Assembly (NCBI GenBank): GCA_963771465.1
Contig: CAVYTU010000013.1
Span: 352,001 to 416,000, forward strand
Length of the DNA: 64,000 nucleotides
Direction: 5' to 3'
From: an uncultured delta proteobacterium
GTDB lineage: Bacteria > Desulfobacterota > Binatia > UBA9968
Part shown: positions 6,894 through 49,943 of the stretch, piece after piece
Position numbering within the stretch: position 1 is the first letter of the stretch
How the letters are laid out: each line of letters begins with the position of its first letter
Position numbers and translations under genes: made by a program
Notes under the pieces: generated by a model
What the model was told of the DNA's origin: nothing
The model's database searches: none
The model's input: only the letters and a program-made list of their open reading frames with translations

Positions 6894-8060
6894 ATGTTAA
6901 CCAGAGAAGAAAATAATATTCTCACCCAAGTGGGGCCCGGAACGCCGGCCGGCGAACTGCTGCGCCGTTACTGGCTGCCAGTCGGTGTGGCGAACGAGCT
7001 GACTCCGGACAATCCGACACAGACGGTGCGGATTCTCGGCGAGACGTTGGTCTTGTTCCGCGACAAGAGCGGTAATATCGGTCTCATCAACGATCGCTGC
7101 CAGCACCGCGGCGCGTCGCTCACCTATGGCCGGGTCGAATCCCGCGGCATTGCTTGCCCGTATCATGGCTGGCTCTATGACACGAAGGGCAACTGTCTCG
7201 AAACCCCGGCCGAGCCTTGCGAGAGCAAATTCCATCTAACCGTTAAGCAGAAAGCCTATCCGGTGCAAAAGTTGGTTGGTTTGTATTGGGCTTATCTCGG
7301 CCCGCTGCCGGCGCCGTTGATCGCCAATTTCGATATTTGGTTTCGCAAGGACGGCCATCGAAAACTCTTTATTCAACCGCCGCTGGACTGCAACTGGTTC
7401 CAGCCCATGGAAAATTCCATGGACCCGGCGCATCTGCAGATTCTGCACCAAGACACGGCCAACCGCGGCCGGTCGATTCAAGATTCGACGCGGGGGTTGA
7501 CCGACGACGTCCACGAGTTCGATTTCTATGAAACGTCTTACGGTTTGATGAAGCGGCGCACTTATAAGAACGGCATGATCGATGAGCATCCCGTGATCTT
7601 CCCCAACATCCTACGTCAGGGCAATGTCGGTCAAATCCGCGTGCCGATAGACGACACCCATACAAAAGTCTTTTTCGTACGCTTCTTCCCATCCGCCAAC
7701 GGCGAGATCGTCGAATACGACGATCCACCGGTGGAATACATCAAGCCGTATAAGAATCCGCCTGACGCGCTGCATCCGTTTACGAAGTTTCGCATGGACG
7801 CCGTGCAGGCGCAGGATCACATGGCTTGGGAAACCCAGGGGCCGATCTGTGACCGTACTCAGGAACGTTTAACCAGCTCCGATCGCGGTGTTATCCTGCT
7901 GCGCGAAGTGATGTTCCGGGAGATGAAAAAAGTTCGGCAAGGCCAGGATCCCATGGGAGTGATTCGCGACCCGGCGAATAATCCTTTCATCGACACCCAT
8001 CTGATGGAATCCATCGCGCAAAGCAGCAACAATCGCGCGCCCCGCGTGGTCAACGAATAG
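6894..8060 (+). CDS. Rieske non-heme iron oxygenase alpha subunit (paralogue of 5265..6440)
   Basis: 'CQHR...CPYHGW', 'ENSMDPAHLQILH', 'QDHMAWETQG'; GGAGGAG RBS. Confidence 0.9.
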   Translation: MLTREENNILTQVGPGTPAGELLRRYWLPVGVANELTPDNPTQTVRILGETLVLFRDKSGNIGLINDRCQHRGASLTYGRVESRGIACPYHGWLYDTKGNCLETPAEPCESKFHLTVKQKAYPVQKLVGLYWAYLGPLPAPLIANFDIWFRKDGHRKLFIQPPLDCNWFQPMENSMDPAHLQILHQDTANRGRSIQDSTRGLTDDVHEFDFYETSYGLMKRRTYKNGMIDEHPVIFPNILRQGNVGQIRVPIDDTHTKVFFVRFFPSANGEIVEYDDPPVEYIKPYKNPPDALHPFTKFRMDAVQAQDHMAWETQGPICDRTQERLTSSDRGVILLREVMFREMKKVRQGQDPMGVIRDPANNPFIDTHLMESIAQSSNNRAPRVVNE

Positions 8061-39589: not shown

Positions 39590-39665
39590 ACCTATCCTCC
39601 GTTTCTAGTATCGAAGATTCGCCGAAATGAAGTTGATTTCAACGAAACCAATTTCACTCGTGCAA

Positions 39666-39716
39666 GTTACGCTCTAGTTACAAACGAATTAATAAATTGT
39701 GACAAAACGGTAATAG
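39666..39716 (-). promoter_or_regulatory. Pho-box-like array of 11-bp-period direct repeats
   Basis: Minus strand ATTAC.CGTT TTGTCAC AATT TATTAAT TCGT TTGTAAC TAGA GCGTAAC, 80-125 bp upstream of pstS; resembles CTGTCAT-N4 PhoB sites. Confidence 0.75.
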
Positions 39717-39956
39717 CGGCGCCTCAGCTCGGAGCAATTGAAACAGCGGGGCGCCCGCGCCGGCGTTGTGCGCGATCCGCCCCCGTTCATCGAAGGTTCA
39801 TGTGAAGCAGACGACTACTCTGACGGATTGTTAGTCCAGTCAGATAGGGGATGCGGGAAAACGGAGATCAACCGATGATGAAGAGCTGGGTTCGTGCACG
39901 TTAAGGGTTGCGTTGATGCCGTCACGATCGGATATGCAGTATGTACAAGAGCACGG

Positions 39957-40232
39957 CTACGTGGCATGCGCGGATATAGTTTGGAATTTGAAACTCGCCT
40001 GACTGCCGGCGAAATAAAGCATTTCGATCACATCGGAATAATCAACGTTTCGCTCGCGAGCAAATTCATCGAAACAAGGCAAGCAAACAACGGTGTCTCG
40101 ATATTCGTGAGGTACGACTTGGCGCCAAATTCGATCCGGAACATAGAAATTGAATTTATCCTGGCATTTACAAACCCGACAGCGCTGCCGCTTGAATCCA
40201 CTTGGAATACTAGTCTTGTGTTTTATCCTCAT
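39957..40232 (-). CDS. Small putative Zn-ribbon protein
   Basis: GGAGG RBS before ATG40232; CRVC...CLPC. Confidence 0.6.
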   Translation of the reverse strand: MRIKHKTSIPSGFKRQRCRVCKCQDKFNFYVPDRIWRQVVPHEYRDTVVCLPCFDEFARERNVDYSDVIEMLYFAGSQASFKFQTISAHAT

Positions 40233-40461
40233 CGTCGCCTCCATCGATTCTGAATCTCCGTCAGGGAGGCCACAGAAGCAATGACAATACCAATAGCCGA
40301 AATCATTGAGCTTTCGGCACTGATCACCAGCAATCATCGCGAAAATGTCGGTAATTTTCTTCTAGTCAGCAAATATTTTTACTGAAGAAAATTATCAAAG
40401 AGCCTTGTCTCAAGGAACTGATCGAATATCATAGAATTAATTGAATGAAGCATTGAGCCTA

Positions 40462-40797
40462 ATGATTGAAACCTACCGAAAAGCGATCGGCAGCAAGGTT
40501 TGGCACTTCTGTACGAATTGCGCCACCTACCCAACACAAGATTACACATCATTTCCATTTCCTCAGCGCGTCGAAGATGCTGAGTTATGTACAGAATGTA
40601 TCGCTCGTCACGCCATAGGTGATTGCGCTGGCGACCACGATGTGGGTTCGCTTACAAAAAGGAAGTGCTCGGTAATCGTCGAAGGTAAAAAATGCGGACT
40701 TGACCTACTCTACGATTTGGCATCCGCTCTCCATATATGCCCGTCAGGTCATCGCACTCTAATTGTGCTCCCGGCCAAACTAAAAAAGTCAAACTGA
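40462..40797 (+). CDS. Small Cys/His-rich hypothetical protein
   Basis: 'WHFCTNC...LCTEC' plus 'C..C..HICPSGH'. Confidence 0.55.
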   Translation: MIETYRKAIGSKVWHFCTNCATYPTQDYTSFPFPQRVEDAELCTECIARHAIGDCAGDHDVGSLTKRKCSVIVEGKKCGLDLLYDLASALHICPSGHRTLIVLPAKLKKSN

Positions 40798-40942
40798 ATC
40801 CAACTTCAGTTTCTCTTGCTAACTAAATCGCTGATAAGCTCACCATATATTCGTTAGCCACGCGGAGTCGTTGACCATTACCGCTTAACCGAGTATTGGC
40901 AAAGGTAAAGACTCAACTGTAGAGCGCCTTCCGAATTATCGC

Positions 40943-42198: not shown

Positions 42199-42696
42199 AT
42201 GTTTCGTCGTGTCGATCTTCCCGCACAGGTTCCTGGGAAACTGCTACTCCACAGCATGCCGGGGCGCTATGAAGCGCTCGATCGTGTGTGGCATCAGGTG
42301 AGGAACGAAGCGGTTTGCGCCATCGTGTGTCTAGCCGAAATGGCTGAAGTTCGGGATAAGTCTGCCGAGTACGCTCGGGCGCTTGAAGAGGGCACGGTGC
42401 CTTGTGCGGTGCTGCAATTCGAGATTCCCGACCGCGGCGCCGCCGCCGACCGGGTTGCATTTTGGGCGCTTGCCGACGACATAGCGAAACGCTTGCACGC
42501 TGGTGAAGCCGTGCTGATTCATTGCGCCGGCGGCGTGGGCCGCACTGCAATGCTTGCGATTTGCGTGCTGCTCGCTCTCGGTGAACCGGCGAACGCGGCC
42601 CGCAGTGTGATCTCGCGGGCGGGGTCGACGATTGAAACCGCTCCTCAGAGCAGCCTCATTTCGTGGTGCGAATCGAAGGTCGGTGTCAAAGCGTAA
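42199..42696 (+). CDS. Dual-specificity/protein-tyrosine phosphatase family protein
   Basis: P-loop HCAGGVGRT, 'IPD' acid loop, 'IET..Q'. Confidence 0.88.
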   Translation: MFRRVDLPAQVPGKLLLHSMPGRYEALDRVWHQVRNEAVCAIVCLAEMAEVRDKSAEYARALEEGTVPCAVLQFEIPDRGAAADRVAFWALADDIAKRLHAGEAVLIHCAGGVGRTAMLAICVLLALGEPANAARSVISRAGSTIETAPQSSLISWCESKVGVKA

Positions 42697-44113: not shown

Positions 44114-45178
44114 CTAATAGCCGTACTTCTCGACCACCGGCGCCAACCGTTCCAAGTTGCGCTTGACCTCGTCGGTCTGAGCCATTTCGTGCCACACTTC
44201 CTGAACCAAATCCTGCTGAATCATAGCGTCCAAATCCTTGCGCGTCACCGATTTGGACAGCACGCCGGCATCGATATGTTCTTCGAGGATGCGCCAGACG
44301 CCCTCCGGACTAAGCTGGCCGTCGAGCGGGAAAAACGAACTCTCCAACATGATGATCGGCACGAGATCGCGCATGCGCTCGGACTCATCCGGATTGTTGA
44401 CGCGCAGCTTGGCTTCGACATAGCGGCGAAATGGGTAGCTTTCGGGAATCATCCGCATCTGATGGTAAGCGCGGATGGTCGCTTTCCAGAAACGCTTGAT
44501 CAATTCCGGATTGCGCTCGATGAATGATTTCCGCGCCACGGTGACGCGATCGGGCCGGCCGTGGGGTTTGGAGTCCTCGACGAAGTCGTAGAGTTTATTG
44601 AAGCCTTGCTCGACCAATTGTGGCACCCACTGATTGCGTACGATGGCGGCGTCGGTATCGCCGGCCTGGAGCGGCTTCCAGGCTTCGCGCATGGAGCCGT
44701 ATTTGTAACCGATCTTCCACTCGACGTCGCGATCGGGGTCCAAGCCGGCCAGACGCATTTGCCGTTCGAGCCACAAGGTGGCGATGCCGCCGCGATACCA
44801 ATCGCCGATGCGTTTGCCTTTGAGTTCTTTGATCGACCTGACGCCGGGCGCGGTCACCAGCGAAGCGGGAAACCAATTGCGCCAGCCGCCGATGATTCTC
44901 AGCTCGTCATTGCCCAAGGCGCGCTCGGCGAACGGCGTGCGCACGTGCACGTCGGGAATGATGTCGATATTGAACGCGATCATATCGCGCAGCACCGTGC
45001 CGACCTCGTCATAGCGCTCGCCGTCGGGCCGGCTGGATTCCATGCCTTTGGCATAGATTTTTGCCGTGACGACTTCGACGTCGATCCCTTCTTGGGCGAA
45101 GAGACCGGCCTCGTGGCAATACGCCGCAACCTGCACATGACCCGCATGCCAACAACCGTTACCCACACGAAGTTTCAT
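44114..45178 (-). CDS. NMT1/SsuA-like binding-protein-fold protein lacking a signal peptide
   Basis: 'ELKGKRIG', 'AGLDPDRDV', 'FIERNPELIKRF'; N-terminus MKLRVGNGCWHAGH. Confidence 0.75.
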   Translation of the reverse strand: MKLRVGNGCWHAGHVQVAAYCHEAGLFAQEGIDVEVVTAKIYAKGMESSRPDGERYDEVGTVLRDMIAFNIDIIPDVHVRTPFAERALGNDELRIIGGWRNWFPASLVTAPGVRSIKELKGKRIGDWYRGGIATLWLERQMRLAGLDPDRDVEWKIGYKYGSMREAWKPLQAGDTDAAIVRNQWVPQLVEQGFNKLYDFVEDSKPHGRPDRVTVARKSFIERNPELIKRFWKATIRAYHQMRMIPESYPFRRYVEAKLRVNNPDESERMRDLVPIIMLESSFFPLDGQLSPEGVWRILEEHIDAGVLSKSVTRKDLDAMIQQDLVQEVWHEMAQTDEVKRNLERLAPVVEKYGY

Positions 45179-45324
45179 CGTTCACTCCAGAGCAAAGTTT
45201 TCATAAGCTAGCAAGCTGCTCGGCCAAACGTCAAACAGACTGGACGTTTCATTCACCACCTCGCTGCTTCAAGCATAGCGCCATTGGCTGTAACAGCTAT
45301 CATTTAATCTCGCAAAATATTCTT

Positions 45325-45351
45325 TGGCGGAGAAGGGAGGAGGTCGAACCC
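45325..45351 (-). repeat. att-like direct repeat of the tRNA-Sec 3' end
   Basis: TGGCGGAGAAGGGAGGAGGTCGAACCC versus 48988-49014 TGGCGGAGAAGGGAGGGAGTCGAACCC (25/27). Confidence 0.9.
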
Positions 45352-45374
45352 ATCGAAACATGCCCGCCGAGGCG

Positions 45375-46535
45375 TCATTCTCGCAGCAACGCGGATGCTC
45401 TATCGACAAGTGTCTGCTCGTCCCAGTGAAGGCGTTCGAATGAAGCGGCGATCCTGCCGTCGTTATCAAGGATGTAAGCTTCGATTTTGTGGCGGTTGAC
45501 CAGCGATTCGATGAAGTTGACGCCCAGCTCAAAATAGCTACAAAGAGCATCGAAACTGTCAATGGACCTTAGTATTCTATGGCCGGCATGAAGGCGTACG
45601 CCGCGGTGTTTTCCATAAGCGCGCAATCGCTCGGGTAGATCGTAGGCGGGATCATATGTAATCGCGGCCGTATGGATTAACTCGCTGAGTCCTTGTTCTC
45701 TCAGCAGCTTTTGCACGGATGCAAGCTTGGTGATCGTGAGCGAGCACTTCAGGGGATTGTCGCAGCGGGTGTAGAAGAAAACGACGATTGATGGATGCCC
45801 GTAAAAAAATTCCTTGAAGGTAAGCGAGGCACCCTCATGGTCCTCAAAGACAATCTTTTCGACGGATTCGGAACTGCAACGGGTGTCACGTGCCCATGAA
45901 ACTACACTGTTGACGGGGGCCGGTGAGGCACAGCAAGAGTGATTATTCGGCTCGCTCGTTTGATCACCACGACGAATCGCCTCAACAGCGCGATCTACAT
46001 CATCCAGGAATCTCTTCGGAAGCCCGCCGTCCTTCGTGCCCAAAGACTCCACCTGGGGCAGAATCTCCCGCGCACTCGGTCCCATCCATTCTAACGTTGC
46101 AAGTAGTTCTCTAACCGGGCTTGTCGCCCCGTGAGATTCAGAGTATGCGCCGTAGTTCTCGAAGGATACGGGTTCATCATGATACCTGATGTTGGCGAGC
46201 GCGCGGATCAGGTAGGGCGCGAAAAATGCGGATGGATTCGGGTAGGACCGCAAGGCGCGTGCCGCGGCCGCGACAAGATAGGCGTCAACACCCGTATCAA
46301 GTTCTTCGAGCACGAAGATCAACGCGGGTTCCGATAGGCCGACGTGCGACAGAGCATGTAGAACCCAGCCGCGCATCCTGACAATCGCTGCAGTTCCACG
46401 CTGATCGTAGCAGGGATGATCTTCGCGCAATAGATCAGTTAACTGTTCGCGCCTGGTTGGATCGCCAGCAAGCGATTCAACCAACGATGCAAACTCCCGT
46501 TCCGACTGTGCAGTAGTCGCTCTCGAATCCTGCAT
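45375..46535 (-). CDS. SCO1/SenC family copper chaperone with an N-terminal HEAT-like helical region
   Basis: GAGGAGG RBS; C-terminal 'FEDHEG...FFYTRCDNPLKC...ITYDPAYD.PERLRAY...H....YILD..GRI'; N-terminal 'LVAAAARALR'. Confidence 0.8.
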   Translation of the reverse strand: MQDSRATTAQSEREFASLVESLAGDPTRREQLTDLLREDHPCYDQRGTAAIVRMRGWVLHALSHVGLSEPALIFVLEELDTGVDAYLVAAAARALRSYPNPSAFFAPYLIRALANIRYHDEPVSFENYGAYSESHGATSPVRELLATLEWMGPSAREILPQVESLGTKDGGLPKRFLDDVDRAVEAIRRGDQTSEPNNHSCCASPAPVNSVVSWARDTRCSSESVEKIVFEDHEGASLTFKEFFYGHPSIVVFFYTRCDNPLKCSLTITKLASVQKLLREQGLSELIHTAAITYDPAYDLPERLRAYGKHRGVRLHAGHRILRSIDSFDALCSYFELGVNFIESLVNRHKIEAYILDNDGRIAASFERLHWDEQTLVDRASALLRE

Positions 46536-46546
46536 TGTTCGCCTCC

Positions 46547-47431
46547 TCACTGACCATACTTGCTGAGGAACTGCCGTGCGGATTGTTTGACCACGCTTGA
46601 TCCCTTGCCGCCGAGGCGTTTTACGCGCCTAAGAAGTACGCTGTCATTGACTATGGCCACTTGGTCGCCGAACTGCTTAAGTGCAGTCAGGCAAGTGGCC
46701 TGAATCTCATCATGCTCCGAGGTGTCTAGTAAAATCTCGCGGGCGTGAGTGCGTAATTTGTCCGGTTTGATCGCCTGTAGGGCAGCGGCGGAGATCTGCC
46801 GATTCTCAGACGTTTCTTTTTTGTCGCGCAAGACTTTCTCGAACGTGGGTGCAGCGTTGGCATCGGCGGCGAGGAGACGTAACGCTTCTCGCTTTGCGGT
46901 CGCATTGGGTGGATTGCCAACGATCGCACGCGCGATTGGATAAGCTTCGGCGTGTACATCGTAACTGAGAAGCTGGAGTGCCTTCTCAGGTGGAAGTAAC
47001 GCTTTGTCAGGTTGCTGCAGCCCTTCGAGCAGCTTCTTTTGTGCAAAACCATCTTTCTCGCGTGCGAGGATACCGAGCACGCGCTGACGGAGCTCTAGAT
47101 CTTTGTCCGCTGCCACCGCGCGCAAGGTCGCAATGTAGTCCGTACGGCACGACTCGAACGCGACGACGCTAAAACTTGCGGCTTGTAGTGCCTGTAACGC
47201 GGCTAGCCGTACCTCGATAGGTTCTTTCTCTTCGCGCAGGATTTTCAGGACCGTTTGCAGACTCTTGTCATCCTCACACATGGCCAGAGGCACATCCGCC
47301 ATGGCTTTGACCCGCGCTTTGATCGAGTTTTTCGCATTGGTCCCGAACGCAAGCGCACGCTGTGCAATCCGGCGGGGATTTTGGGCCGATTTCCGGCTCT
47401 TTGCAGATTTAGGTTTAGATTTCTTGGGCAT
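46547..47431 (-). CDS. HEAT/ARM-repeat protein with a basic N-terminal tail
   Basis: Repeated 'EVRLAALQAL', 'ELRQRVLGILA', 'AKREALRLLA', 'ENRQISAAAL', 'EIQATCLTAL', 'VVKQSARQFL'. Confidence 0.78.
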   Translation of the reverse strand: MPKKSKPKSAKSRKSAQNPRRIAQRALAFGTNAKNSIKARVKAMADVPLAMCEDDKSLQTVLKILREEKEPIEVRLAALQALQAASFSVVAFESCRTDYIATLRAVAADKDLELRQRVLGILAREKDGFAQKKLLEGLQQPDKALLPPEKALQLLSYDVHAEAYPIARAIVGNPPNATAKREALRLLAADANAAPTFEKVLRDKKETSENRQISAAALQAIKPDKLRTHAREILLDTSEHDEIQATCLTALKQFGDQVAIVNDSVLLRRVKRLGGKGSSVVKQSARQFLSKYGQ

Positions 47432-47458
47432 GGTGGCTATCTCCTCGTTTCGAGCATT

Positions 47459-48682
47459 TCATGAAAAAGGCGCATCGTCGTAGTCGAATCCCAACCGTGT
47501 AAGAGGATTTAGGGTACCTTGGTAATCCAGACAATCACGCACGCGTGGCTGGGGTCCCGGGGCAGTGACGCTTGGCGATGATGCTAACGCACCACCCGGC
47601 GCTGTCGGAGGACGCGTGCCTCCAGTAATCCCATTCCACGGCCACATTGTATCAGGGAGATTATGGCCAATGCGGCTTACGGGAGTACTGTCGTATGAGG
47701 CTGCCTGGCCCGGATCAAAACGGCGGAACTGACGCTGCCACTTAGCCCATAGCCGATCGACATTGCAGTGTAGCAAGAAGAACAGTGGATCTCGTGCAGC
47801 GGTTGGGATGCTAGAAATCGATCCACCGAAGCTCGTGTGCGCTGAACCATGCGGATTGCCTTCCATTGTCCGGAATGATCGGTATTGGTTGCCAAGTCCA
47901 AGTGTGTTCGCCTCGTTACGCAACCCAGGCGGCGCCGAATTTGTGCTGAAAAAAGGTCGGCGATTGATTCCCTGGACGCCATCGGTCACCCAGAATCGCA
48001 ATGGGTTGTTTGCGCTGAACTGGACTGTACCAAGCGGGTCGGACGCACCAAGAAAATCGCGGGTGAAAATATTTGGCGCTGGCTGATCGAATCGCCAGTA
48101 AGGGAGTGAAACGCTTGGATCGATCGTTTGGAGCTCCCGTTCGAGATCCAGCAAATAAGCCCGATGCCAAGGCAAAAAAGCTGGAGCGCCATGCGCCTGG
48201 GGAGAGGCAACTTGGGTGTGCATATCGCGAAAGTCGGCGAAACGCCCTGCGCCTTGGTTGTTAAGTTGTGCAAACGCTGAATTCAATCGGTCGCGCTCTG
48301 CCGGCGTGAGGGTGTTGGCATTCTTTCGGATGCGTACCATGACCGGTACTGAGCCAACGAGTGTGGTTCCGGAGCGGGCTTCTATCGTTACATCACCGTT
48401 ATTGACACTCGGACGTCCGAAGCTGCCCGCGATAAAAAACGACACGGAAGTACCAGTTATCGGAACCGGCAAAGTTAAATCATTGGAAAATGTATCTGTG
48501 GCGTTTCTTCGGAATACGACCGCGCCCCCGGCTGCTTGCGATCGTCCTGTAATCCGCACACTGATTGTCGGCGATGTAGTACCAGACGGGTCGCTCACGC
48601 GGATGCGGCACGGGGATGGAACCCAGGAAAGAAATCTCGTTTTTGGATCTGCACTGTTATTAATCTGAAGTTCCACTCTCAA
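47459..48682 (-). CDS. Tyrosinase (type-3 dicopper) with an extra N-terminal beta-rich domain
   Basis: 'RKNANTLT.AER'; CuA 'MH...AHG.PAFLPWHR'; CuB 'PHGSAH...AARDPLFFLLHCNVDRLWAKWQ'; AAGGAGG RBS before TTG. Confidence 0.92.
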   Translation of the reverse strand: MRVELQINNSADPKTRFLSWVPSPCRIRVSDPSGTTSPTISVRITGRSQAAGGAVVFRRNATDTFSNDLTLPVPITGTSVSFFIAGSFGRPSVNNGDVTIEARSGTTLVGSVPVMVRIRKNANTLTPAERDRLNSAFAQLNNQGAGRFADFRDMHTQVASPQAHGAPAFLPWHRAYLLDLERELQTIDPSVSLPYWRFDQPAPNIFTRDFLGASDPLGTVQFSANNPLRFWVTDGVQGINRRPFFSTNSAPPGLRNEANTLGLGNQYRSFRTMEGNPHGSAHTSFGGSISSIPTAARDPLFFLLHCNVDRLWAKWQRQFRRFDPGQAASYDSTPVSRIGHNLPDTMWPWNGITGGTRPPTAPGGALASSPSVTAPGPQPRVRDCLDYQGTLNPLTRLGFDYDDAPFS

Positions 48683-48987
48683 GATGAAGTCCTCCTTTCG
48701 CCCTTATGGATATGCACTCGTCGTTTCCATGGCACGAGCGATGCCTCCCAAAAGTTAGTGTCAATTTCAAGATCTGTCAATTAACAAAAACCAAGTGAGA
48801 ATGAGACAACCATTTCCTGCGGTCTGACACCGATGCAATGTATTCATTGGATGTCCAACGAGTGGGAGCCGAATGAAGTTCCACTACCATTTTAATCGGC
48901 GATTGTAGGTTAAACGCGATGACCTATCAAAACCCGTCACTGAGGTTATAGGTATCGGCTCGTTGAGTCGAAAATCCGCGAGACACC

Positions 48988-49082
48988 TGGCGGAGAAGGG
49001 AGGGAGTCGAACCCTCCGGGGACCTTACGACCCCCAGACTGGTTTTGAAGACCAGCGGCACCACCGGGCACCTTCCTTCTCC
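48988..49082 (-). tRNA. selC: tRNA-Sec (UCA)
   Basis: 8-bp acceptor stem GGAGAAGG/CCTTCTCC, 6-bp D stem with 4-nt loop, anticodon loop CTTCAAA, long variable arm, 5-bp T stem, G73 and encoded CCA. Confidence 0.95.
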
Positions 49083-49319: not shown

Positions 49320-49943
49320 TCATCGACCGGCCAACCGCACGGTGCTCGCCTGCGGCCCTTTCTCGCCCATCTCTTCGGCGAAGTGAACTTCATGGCCGAC
49401 TTCCAAATGATCGAATCCCGGCGCCAGCACGCTATTTTTGTGAAAGTAGACCTCGCGCCCGTCGAGAGTCTCGAGAAAACCATAATCCTCGATGGGGAAA
49501 AGTTTGACGATACGTGCGGTGGGTGCGGGCTCGTGGAGTTTGACCTTGCCGCGTCGGCGACGGGCGTGGTCCTGCAGCTTTCTTCCCGCCGCGTTAAACG
49601 CGTCGCGGATGGCGACGTAAAGATCTTCATGTGCCGCATGTTTGCTGGGCTCATGAACCTCGGCGAAATCTTTCTCCGGCTCTTCGCCAACGTTTAACTT
49701 GGTAGCCGCCAATCGTTTTGGCGCCCGGTTGACGACTAATTCAGCGCCGGGAACAGTCAAGTCGATCCGCGTCAGATACGCTTTCCCTTTGTGGTGGTGG
49801 CGATGCGGCGCTTCCACGATGACCCGGCAGCTCATGATCTCAGGATAAAGCTCATCGAGCTTGGCCGCCTTCTCGCGCACGTTGCTTTCGATCGCCGGCG
49901 ACGGCGCCATGTTGCGAAAGGTGATCTGCAAGGGAATTTTCAT
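49320..49943 (-). CDS. HPF/RaiA ribosome-associated domain fused to a cold-shock domain
   Basis: 'PLQITFRNM..S.AIE', 'DLYVAIRDAF', 'YGFLET.DGREVYFHKNSV', 'GEKGPQA'. Confidence 0.9.
   Translation of the reverse strand: MKIPLQITFRNMAPSPAIESNVREKAAKLDELYPEIMSCRVIVEAPHRHHHKGKAYLTRIDLTVPGAELVVNRAPKRLAATKLNVGEEPEKDFAEVHEPSKHAAHEDLYVAIRDAFNAAGRKLQDHARRRRGKVKLHEPAPTARIVKLFPIEDYGFLETLDGREVYFHKNSVLAPGFDHLEVGHEVHFAEEMGEKGPQASTVRLAGR

Follow-up and report, generated by a model that had tools for sequence, protein, structure and literature searches.

Within a 64,000-nucleotide stretch of DNA from an uncultured delta proteobacterium (contig CAVYTU010000013.1 of assembly GCA_963771465.1; we call the whole stretch ‘the window’) we describe a three-gene cassette that encodes a tyrosinase (TYR), a HEAT-repeat protein (HEAT) and a protein in which a SCO domain is fused behind a helical region (the SCO fusion). 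The triplet forms a module that is conserved and moves horizontally, and in the window genome it is acquired DNA. Its genes move as a set, a single polypeptide frequently comprises both TYR and HEAT, and the SCO fold keeps its Cys/Cys/His set. On balance, we favour the view that the cassette is a self-contained, horizontally transferred tyrosinase module of the cytoplasm, in which TYR would be capped by HEAT and would receive copper from the SCO-like protein. Full-text literature searches gave no description of this triplet, and source annotations call its products only ‘tyrosinase family protein’, ‘SCO family protein’, ‘protein SCO1/2’ or ‘hypothetical protein’.

The genes are co-oriented and tightly packed, with spacers below 30 bp and good ribosome-binding sites, just as the original prediction for this DNA had described them: 27 nucleotides (nt) separate TYR from HEAT, 11 nt separate HEAT from the SCO fusion, and Shine-Dalgarno matches stand ahead of all three starts (AAGGAGG, GAGGAG and GAGGAGG, respectively). 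For the SCO fusion, the list of open reading frames (ORFs) gives a GTG start at 46550; the ATG at 46535, which stands 7 nt after the GAGGAGG, is the likelier start. The cassette is faced by the 3′ end of a tRNA-SeC gene (selC), and a 27-nt copy of that end recurs beyond the SCO fusion (25 of 27 nt identical, 93%; spacing 3663 nt; Table 1). Since the repeat pair encloses exactly TYR, HEAT and the SCO fusion, the triplet is the whole content of a 3.66-kb interval that resembles an insertion at a tRNA site; the proposal that these genes form the entire cargo of a selC islet therefore holds. The ORF list contains no further gene-size frame within the islet that could be an integrase or other mobility gene, and at related loci there is no integrase family among the 25 commonest flank families listed. 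The GC content of the cassette (0.50-0.57) is slightly under that of its flanks. A promoter-like element upstream of TYR is weak, being a consensus match only; the promoter scan of the region returned 1 site, which is under the mean of 2.7 ± 1.8 expected in shuffles.

With the SCO fusion as query, a scan that took a single genome from each species yielded 35 loci. TYR and HEAT are both upstream of the SCO fusion in 30 of these, always in the order TYR-HEAT-SCO fusion, and the triplet thus proves to be conserved across genomes, a point on which the original prediction had asked to be checked. At three loci (L011, L030 and L034) the triplet is incomplete where the contig stops at the SCO fusion, while L033 is a 145-aa stand-alone SCO protein of a Mycobacterium metagenome-assembled genome (MAG) that matches only to residues 238-359. 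Two cassettes look disrupted: the TYR ORF of L017 has 274 aa though the match covers residues 1-403, and the SCO fusion of L025 is split over three frames. We also noted a degenerate cassette in an alphaproteobacterial MAG (L014, 9781-11143), which has an intact SCO fusion, the last 65 residues of HEAT, and no TYR. The hosts are Acidobacteriota (Thermoanaerobaculia, Pyrinomonadaceae and Blastocatellia), Bradyrhizobium, Mesorhizobium, Acetobacteraceae, a beta-proteobacterial MAG and Binatota. Cultured carriers exist both for the split form (Bradyrhizobium yuanmingense, B. glycinis and B. cajani) and for a fused form that is described below (Olivibacter jilunii and Pedobacter caeni). All-against-all clustering of the flank ORFs gave no fourth conserved gene: across 106 ORFs at 29 loci we counted 124 Pfam families, none of them in more than three ORFs. 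Cytochrome oxidase genes are absent as neighbours; the neighbours of the SCO fusion are TYR and HEAT. The cassette is common in soil, and near-identical DNA turns up in the sequencing runs of 14 soil, rhizosphere and groundwater studies; runs X17-X20 contribute small shares.

Several observations document the acquisition of this DNA. No TYR orthologue was found in 24 same-genus genomes (the genus tallies take in G005, a genome flagged as unpublished), and among 40 relatives of the window genome three give TYR matches, all of them partial (E 2e-7 to 1e-16). The N-terminal domain of the SCO fusion occurs in one of 401 same-phylum genomes drawn evenly, namely the window’s own. Together with the tRNA-end repeat, these results support an acquired origin of the triplet. 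TYR of the window shares 77% identity with its counterpart in a Thermoanaerobaculia MAG, and in the TYR tree it falls into a clade of 17 (support 100/100) that mixes Acidobacteriota, Binatota and Pseudomonadota; Bradyrhizobium appears in two separate clades. In two relatives (G003 and G007), tRNA-SeC adjoins the same ribosome-hibernation gene that lies next to it in the window (HPF-CSD, see below), the cassette is missing, and other genes stand behind the tRNA. The relatives gave no clean empty site, since synteny does not extend to the far flank; the G009 contig is without tRNA-SeC. In L022, a Thermoanaerobaculaceae MAG, we observed a cassette of a different clade (TYR 49% identical) that starts 24 nt behind a tRNA-SeC (7833-7922, + strand); no direct repeats bound the cassettes of L022, L009, L001 or L025.

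Metagenome data add to this picture. Contigs from soil metagenomes bridge both islet junctions; one from run X1 (44940-46107) crosses the junction at repeat copy 2 with 0 differences. In this run the summed depth is 44 in the tRNA bin versus about 5.6 over the islet, and loose contig ends lie at 48988; both the high depth of the tRNA bin and the ends at 48988 fit relatives that have the tRNA and lack the insert. Two RNA-labelled runs from two studies also have contigs on the cassette (X8 in 25 of 30 bins, X16 in 14 of 30; we attach no meaning to bins that these runs leave uncovered), and one 713-nt contig from an RNA-labelled run spans the HEAT/TYR junction. These contigs do not show transcription, because such libraries can hold DNA and the contigs give neither strand nor level.

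The first gene is a tyrosinase with all six copper-binding histidines, as had been predicted: it matches Pfam Tyrosinase (PF00264) with 121.8 bits (cut-off 22.6; E 6.6e-35; residues 146-318), and the copper ligands H155, H164 and H173 (CuA, H-x8-H with one more His upstream) and H278, H282 and H305 (CuB, H-x3-H with one more His downstream) are invariant in 30 sequences. The four-helix-bundle fold resembles that of solved tyrosinases. Among 109 chains at E<=0.001, Foldseek places the catalytic domain closest to the Bacillus (Priestia) megaterium tyrosinase (4p6r_A; E 4.6e-13, 28-30% identity), followed by MelC2 structures (6j2u_B, 5z0f_A and 1wx2_A). On the other hand, TYR reaches only 100.4 bits against the MelC2 equivalog NF047834 of NCBIfam, for which the cut-off is 450, and it is therefore no MelC2 orthologue. 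A further feature, not mentioned in the original prediction, is an eight-strand β-sandwich at the N-terminus (residues 1-116 in the model), followed in the AlphaFold2 model (mean predicted local distance difference test, pLDDT, 74; predicted template-modelling score 0.76) by the helical catalytic domain. The sandwich consists of strands only, is modelled at a pLDDT of about 88-95 and is conserved in 30 sequences; a protein-atlas search with it gave no usable match. It is a previously unreported feature of this tyrosinase subfamily. The C-terminal tail (residues 322-395) has low confidence in the model yet is conserved.

That the middle gene encodes a HEAT-repeat protein, as originally proposed, is supported by a match to Pfam HEAT_2 (PF13646) that is marginal (28.2 bits, cut-off 27.7) and by a protein-atlas score of 0.97; PF13646 is on 91-98% of the members of the matched clusters (91% in the top cluster), and the automatic cluster name is ‘HEAT repeats domain-containing protein’. 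At E<=0.01 the only other Pfam match is a weak one to IBN_N, and there is none to the family of the caddie MelC1. The protein begins with a Lys-rich tail of ~45 residues. The residues that never vary are Leu, Asp, Arg, Ala and Pro of the repeat scaffold; D158 and H160 reach at least 90% conservation, and across 31 HEAT sequences no position holds an invariant Cys or Tyr.

Evidence for a joint action of TYR and HEAT comes from natural fusions, a form that the original prediction had missed. At L023 the two form a single 781-aa ORF (Tyrosinase at 153-347, HEAT_2 at 636-691), followed by a long SCO fusion. Among 7998 candidates, 149 longer TYR relatives were found at E<=0.001, of which the 120 listed were analysed with profiles derived from the cassette. 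All 120 carry the β-sandwich directly ahead of the catalytic domain, and in 74 of them the order is β-sandwich (tyrN), catalytic domain (tyrC), HEAT; the fused relatives carry PF13646. Named examples are from Olivibacter jilunii, Pedobacter caeni, Puia, Bradyrhizobium sp. USDA 10063, and Thermoanaerobaculia and cyanobacterial MAGs.

A complex model of TYR with HEAT residues 40-294 points the same way: its ipSAE interface scores are 0.90, 0.91 and 0.90, versus 0.00 for the best of three controls. Of 80 solved complexes, 58 come up to the mark for this score, as do 2 of 110 mismatched pairs; these counts are only rough here because our own alignments were used. At least 89% of the contacts are common to the runs, and the pLDDT of the partner is at least 88. 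In the model, HEAT sits on the active-site face of TYR: the predicted interface comprises residues 164-166, 278-280 and 282-283 plus a subfamily-specific loop (217-240), and so takes in H164, H278 and H282, three of the six copper histidines. The suggestion that HEAT might gate the enzyme fits both the fusions and this model.

Two groups of very large proteins also contain the β-sandwich and tyrosinase. Six giants of 1526-1898 aa (P0196, P0205, P0219, P0222, P0231 and P0235) combine tyrosinase with multicopper-oxidase and AhpC-TSA/Redoxin families; in P0196, P0222 and P0235 the order is oxidase domains, AhpC-TSA/Redoxin, β-sandwich, tyrosinase, HEAT. In the other group (P0122-P0136; some twelve proteins, each ~1570-1580 aa long), the β-sandwich and tyrosinase are C-terminal, behind ~1150 residues in which P0122, the one member scanned, has no Pfam match.

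SCO/SenC proteins are normally membrane-anchored or periplasmic copper chaperones for cytochrome c oxidase. The assignment of a SCO domain to the third gene is confirmed by SCO1-SenC (PF02630; 41.9 bits, cut-off 22.8, E 1.2e-10), the sole Pfam family above its cut-off for this protein, and by Foldseek, in which SCO proteins are the best matches (4hde, TM-score 0.80, root-mean-square deviation 2.4 Å). C258, C264, H349 and a T-Y-D-P..D stretch are invariant in 30 sequences, and profile alignment to BsSco and 4hde brings the Cys pair, the DP..D motif and the His into register, with H349 aligned to the conserved distal His ligand of 4hde and two extra residues between the cysteines. The motif is thus C-x5-C, and not CxxxC; Cx5C[S/P] is present in 103 of the 113 proteins that have a SCO domain among the 150 best representatives (see below). 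With Cys, Cys and His invariant and the fold SCO-like, it is plausible that this domain loads copper.

Ahead of the SCO domain lies a family-specific helical domain (AlphaFold2 helices 12-193, pLDDT mostly >85; 84.8 for the whole-protein model), connected by a linker that is disordered (pLDDT <50 at residues 193-220) and in which at least 90% of 30 sequences keep C201. This N-domain had been called HEAT-like; helical it is, but without a Pfam HEAT match. We considered whether it is related to the HEAT protein and rejected this: profile comparison with hhalign gives a probability of 0.2, and the two are therefore not detectably related. Searching with a profile built on the N-domain, we obtained 929, 681 and 317 representative proteins at E<=1e-3, 1e-10 and 1e-30, respectively. 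Among the 150 best, the domain is always N-terminal; 69 combine it with the SCO domain and a membrane domain, 44 with the SCO domain, 36 (<=338 aa, and probably fragments) have the N-domain only, and one has it twice. A short form of 386 aa shows 94% identity to the SCO fusion of the window, which indicates that short forms are natural.

We designate as the long form those SCO fusions that extend by a further ~140 residues into four hydrophobic helices. This extension is found at 20 of the 35 loci and is always C-terminal; it is missing from 13 loci and from the window, L006 ends with its contig, and L033 is outside the family. In the window, a hydropathy scan finds no membrane segment in TYR, HEAT or the SCO fusion, and no signal peptide or hydrophobic N-terminus is apparent by eye; the original statement that these proteins lack signal peptides and membrane anchors thus holds for the window. 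Most relatives of the SCO fusion do carry the membrane domain, which that prediction missed. The domain has the motif FPKCPxCW, in which P-K-C-x-x-C-W, with the CPxC pair of helix 1, is invariant in 19 sequences. For 16 of 19 membrane domains the top Pfam family is MerC (PF03203), always below the cut-off; MerC and MerT are mercury uptake proteins. In eight SCO-fusion sequences, the Pfam matches besides SCO1-SenC are weak ones to MerC, DUF6653 and AhpC-TSA. A separate ORF for a MerC-like domain was not found at the short-form loci. Basic residues (Arg/Lys) precede helix 1, follow helix 2 and recur at the C-terminus of the long form; by the positive-inside rule, this pattern suggests an N-in topology, in which the helical and SCO domains would be cytoplasmic.

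Bearing these features in mind, we propose a copper hand-over to a held enzyme. The HEAT solenoid would bind the active-site face of TYR and cap or hold the enzyme much as the caddie MelC1 does, though it is unrelated to MelC1, and the SCO-like domain would pick up Cu(I) and pass it to the binuclear centre. In the long form, copper may enter through the C-terminal four-helix domain by way of its CPxC pair and then travel by the Cys-Cys linker to the SCO site, all soluble parts being cytoplasmic. The specific idea that the long form is a dedicated inward Cu(I) relay (CPxC to Cys-Cys linker to Cys-x5-Cys/His SCO site to HEAT-held TYR), of which the short form in the window is a derivative without the import step, we advance tentatively, as a possibility somewhat short of even chances. 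The short form would instead use the cell’s own copper pool. The output is most likely an intracellular oxidation of phenolic or catecholic small molecules, serving either a detoxification like that of MelD2 or the formation of pigment. In the window genome, the module would have come as the whole cargo of the selC islet.

A number of observations count against the proposed mechanism. Copper binding, copper transfer, location and substrate are all things that we infer. Residues of the predicted TYR-HEAT interface are not extra conserved (TYR, 0.61 versus 0.75; HEAT, 0.583 versus 0.575, permutation p 0.40), in a comparison that is a weak test because it includes buried core positions. The judgement on signal peptides was made by eye only, and some relatives with the tyrN-tyrC core bear dockerin or CarboxypepD_reg domains, which means that this core is not bound to a cytoplasmic location. 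The C-x5-C spacing is unlike the CxxxC of characterised Sco proteins. As to the relay, the likeness of the membrane domain to MerC stays below the cut-off (best E 5.9e-4; first member 19.2 bits versus 27.6), and NCBIfam gives no match to the domain. Elsewhere in the window’s genome, the best match to a MerC-like domain has an E of 0.39; as neither the SCO fusion of the window nor its genome has the membrane domain, an import relay cannot operate here. Finally, it is Gly279 that follows the first CuB His of TYR, where the aligned hemocyanin units have Asn. An Asn at this position is linked to monophenolase activity.

The same SCO-like protein could be read in another way, as a thiol-disulfide or peroxiredoxin-type redox partner that protects against quinones or peroxide or reduces a partner, while HEAT still holds TYR. 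This we regard as unlikely, though it is the main rival to our view: SCO belongs to the thioredoxin-fold group, the Foldseek matches that come after the SCO proteins are ResA, Bcp/PrxQ and GPX4, the Cys spacing departs from that of Sco, and the SCO fusion of L026 also has a weak AhpC-TSA match. Moreover, the three giants scanned have AhpC-TSA/Redoxin domains (40.4, 33.4 and 50.4 bits, cut-off 26) before tyrN-tyrosinase-HEAT, and a thioredoxin-fold domain in that place speaks for redox chemistry as much as for copper handling. The SCO-domain profile, however, misses this domain of the giants at E<1e-3, so it is of a different subfamily from the SCO domain of the cassette. A peroxiredoxin would have no need of the invariant His349, which aligns with the copper-ligand His of Sco; only SCO1-SenC exceeds its Pfam cut-off in the protein of the window; and the CPxC membrane domain and Cys-Cys linker suit a metal relay better than the reduction of peroxide.

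Export of TYR, with extracellular melanin or quinones as for MelC2 and the helpers serving folding and export, appears improbable to us. A review table does give bacterial tyrosinase as extracellular (PMC7558416), and the dockerin and CarboxypepD_reg domains of some relatives would be in keeping with export; but the three window proteins have neither a hydrophobic N-terminus nor a membrane segment, a confidently modelled β-strand begins at residue 2 of TYR, and the charge distribution of the long form puts the soluble domains inside. We give very little credence to an anti-phage or abortive-infection system that frees toxic quinones upon infection, which the original prediction had offered as one output. 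A small acquired islet at a tRNA gene and a patchy distribution are what such a system might show, and yet PADLOC has no hits for the three proteins, no flank family recurs beyond the three occurrences given above, no known defence family is among the 25 commonest listed, and a sensor or nuclease-type partner is lacking. It would be just as surprising if HEAT were a substrate, another suggestion made at the outset, with TYR converting a HEAT tyrosine into 3,4-dihydroxyphenylalanine (DOPA) or its quinone for cross-linking: the model does put HEAT over the active-site face, with Y157 among the contacts, but Y157 is present in 58% only of the 31 HEAT sequences and, as noted, these have no invariant Tyr or Cys.

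Table 1. Positions in the window of the cassette genes, their domains and the elements around them
Feature	Position	Strand	Remarks
TYR (tyrosinase)	47459-48682	-	407 aa; first gene of triplet
TYR N-domain	48341-48682	-	residues 1-114; eight-strand β-sandwich
TYR catalytic domain and tail	47459-48340	-	residues 115-407 + stop; type-3 copper domain
HEAT (HEAT-repeat partner)	46547-47431	-	294 aa; second gene
SCO fusion	45375-46535	-	386 aa from the likelier ATG start; third gene
SCO-fusion helical N-domain	45957-46535	-	residues 1-193; family-specific
SCO-fusion linker	45852-45956	-	residues 194-228; Cys pair C201-C202
SCO/thioredoxin-fold domain	45375-45851	-	residues 229-386 + stop; C258, C264, H349
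tRNA-SeC (selC)	48988-49082	-	anticodon TCA; ARAGORN; Rfam RF01852, 76.7 bits (gathering score 47)
Direct-repeat copy 1 (attL-like)	48988-49014		tRNA-SeC 3′ end, 27 nt; repeat search
Direct-repeat copy 2 (attR-like)	45325-45351		23 nt past the SCO-fusion stop codon
Promoter-like TTGATA-17-TACAAT	48902-48930	-	upstream of TYR; weak, consensus match only

We also made some observations in the window outside the cassette. The gene next to tRNA-SeC (49320-49943, - strand) encodes a 207-aa protein, HPF-CSD, that joins a Ribosomal_S30AE ribosome-hibernation domain to a C-terminal cold-shock domain; fusion to a cold-shock domain is an unusual architecture for HPF. When this gene together with a portion of tRNA-SeC served as query, 26 of 30 other same-genus genomes gave matches, mostly over the gene. 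The nearest named GluQRS homologues bear labels of Binatia, Deltaproteobacteria, Chloroflexota and Planctomycetota, and thus do not single out a phylum for the window. The interval 39590-40940 has a low GC content (0.43-0.50 versus about 0.57-0.63 around it) and no ORF of 150 aa; small Cys-rich ORFs with several CxxC pairs each lie at 39957-40337 (- strand, 126 aa) and at 40441-40797 (+ strand, 118 aa). A 165-aa ORF at 42199-42696 (+ strand) contains HCAGGVGRT, which we take to fit the Cys-x5-Arg loop of protein-tyrosine or dual-specificity phosphatases.

Among known systems, the Streptomyces melC1-melC2 pair has a short tyrosinase that is co-transcribed with an active-site-covering, copper-loading helper, an arrangement like the one that we propose for the cassette; the caddie both blocks and loads the enzyme (PMC9454253). 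In contrast to MelC1, which is β-rich and about 15 kDa, the helper in the cassette is a 294-aa all-helical HEAT solenoid, and the cassette adds a second helper of the SCO fold and the N-terminal β-sandwich on the enzyme. The melD operon of Streptomyces offers an intracellular precedent: MelD2 acts inside the cell and guards it against phenolics (PMC2758597). For the long form, the nearest functional precedent is the tyrosinase operon of Marinomonas mediterranea, in which the membrane protein PpoB2 hands copper specifically to the tyrosinase PpoB1; according to the paper, PpoB2 is of COG5486 (PMC2855505). The M. mediterranea system is set apart from ours by having neither a HEAT partner nor the SCO fold. 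The tyrosinase of B. megaterium, the closest solved structure to the catalytic domain of TYR, is listed as a stand-alone active enzyme (PMC9454253); it lacks an N-terminal domain and helpers.

With the chaperones of the SCO1/SenC/PrrC group (BsSco 1xzo, B. anthracis 4hde, ScoI of B. japonicum 4wbj, yeast and human SCO1), the SCO fusion shares the thioredoxin-like fold, the Cys pair, DP..D and the His. It differs from them in its C-x5-C, in the helical N-domain of ~195 residues and in having no N-terminal anchor or lipobox; it is predicted to be cytoplasmic, and its neighbour is a tyrosinase rather than a cytochrome oxidase. The weak likeness of the long form to MerC/MerT consists in a compact membrane domain of four helices, the first of which carries a Cys pair. 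Unlike those proteins, the domain falls below the Pfam cut-off, is fused behind SCO and has no mer context, and it is absent from the window.

A review from 2022 distinguishes three architectures of bacterial tyrosinases, namely caddie-dependent, C-terminal zymogen and stand-alone, and (PMC9454253); beside these three the cassette would be a fourth. This fourth architecture would consist of an N-terminally extended core, an unrelated helical cap and a helper of the SCO fold, with no export signal on the three proteins. Tyrosinases with dedicated helpers are known; the novelty here lies in the unrelated helpers and in the probable cytoplasmic setting. Copper enzymes are generally described as kept out of the bacterial cytoplasm. 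If true, the copper-relay reading would mean a deliberate import of copper for a cytoplasmic enzyme, together with a new job for the SCO fold, and the cassette may bear on the handling of phenolics by soil bacteria.

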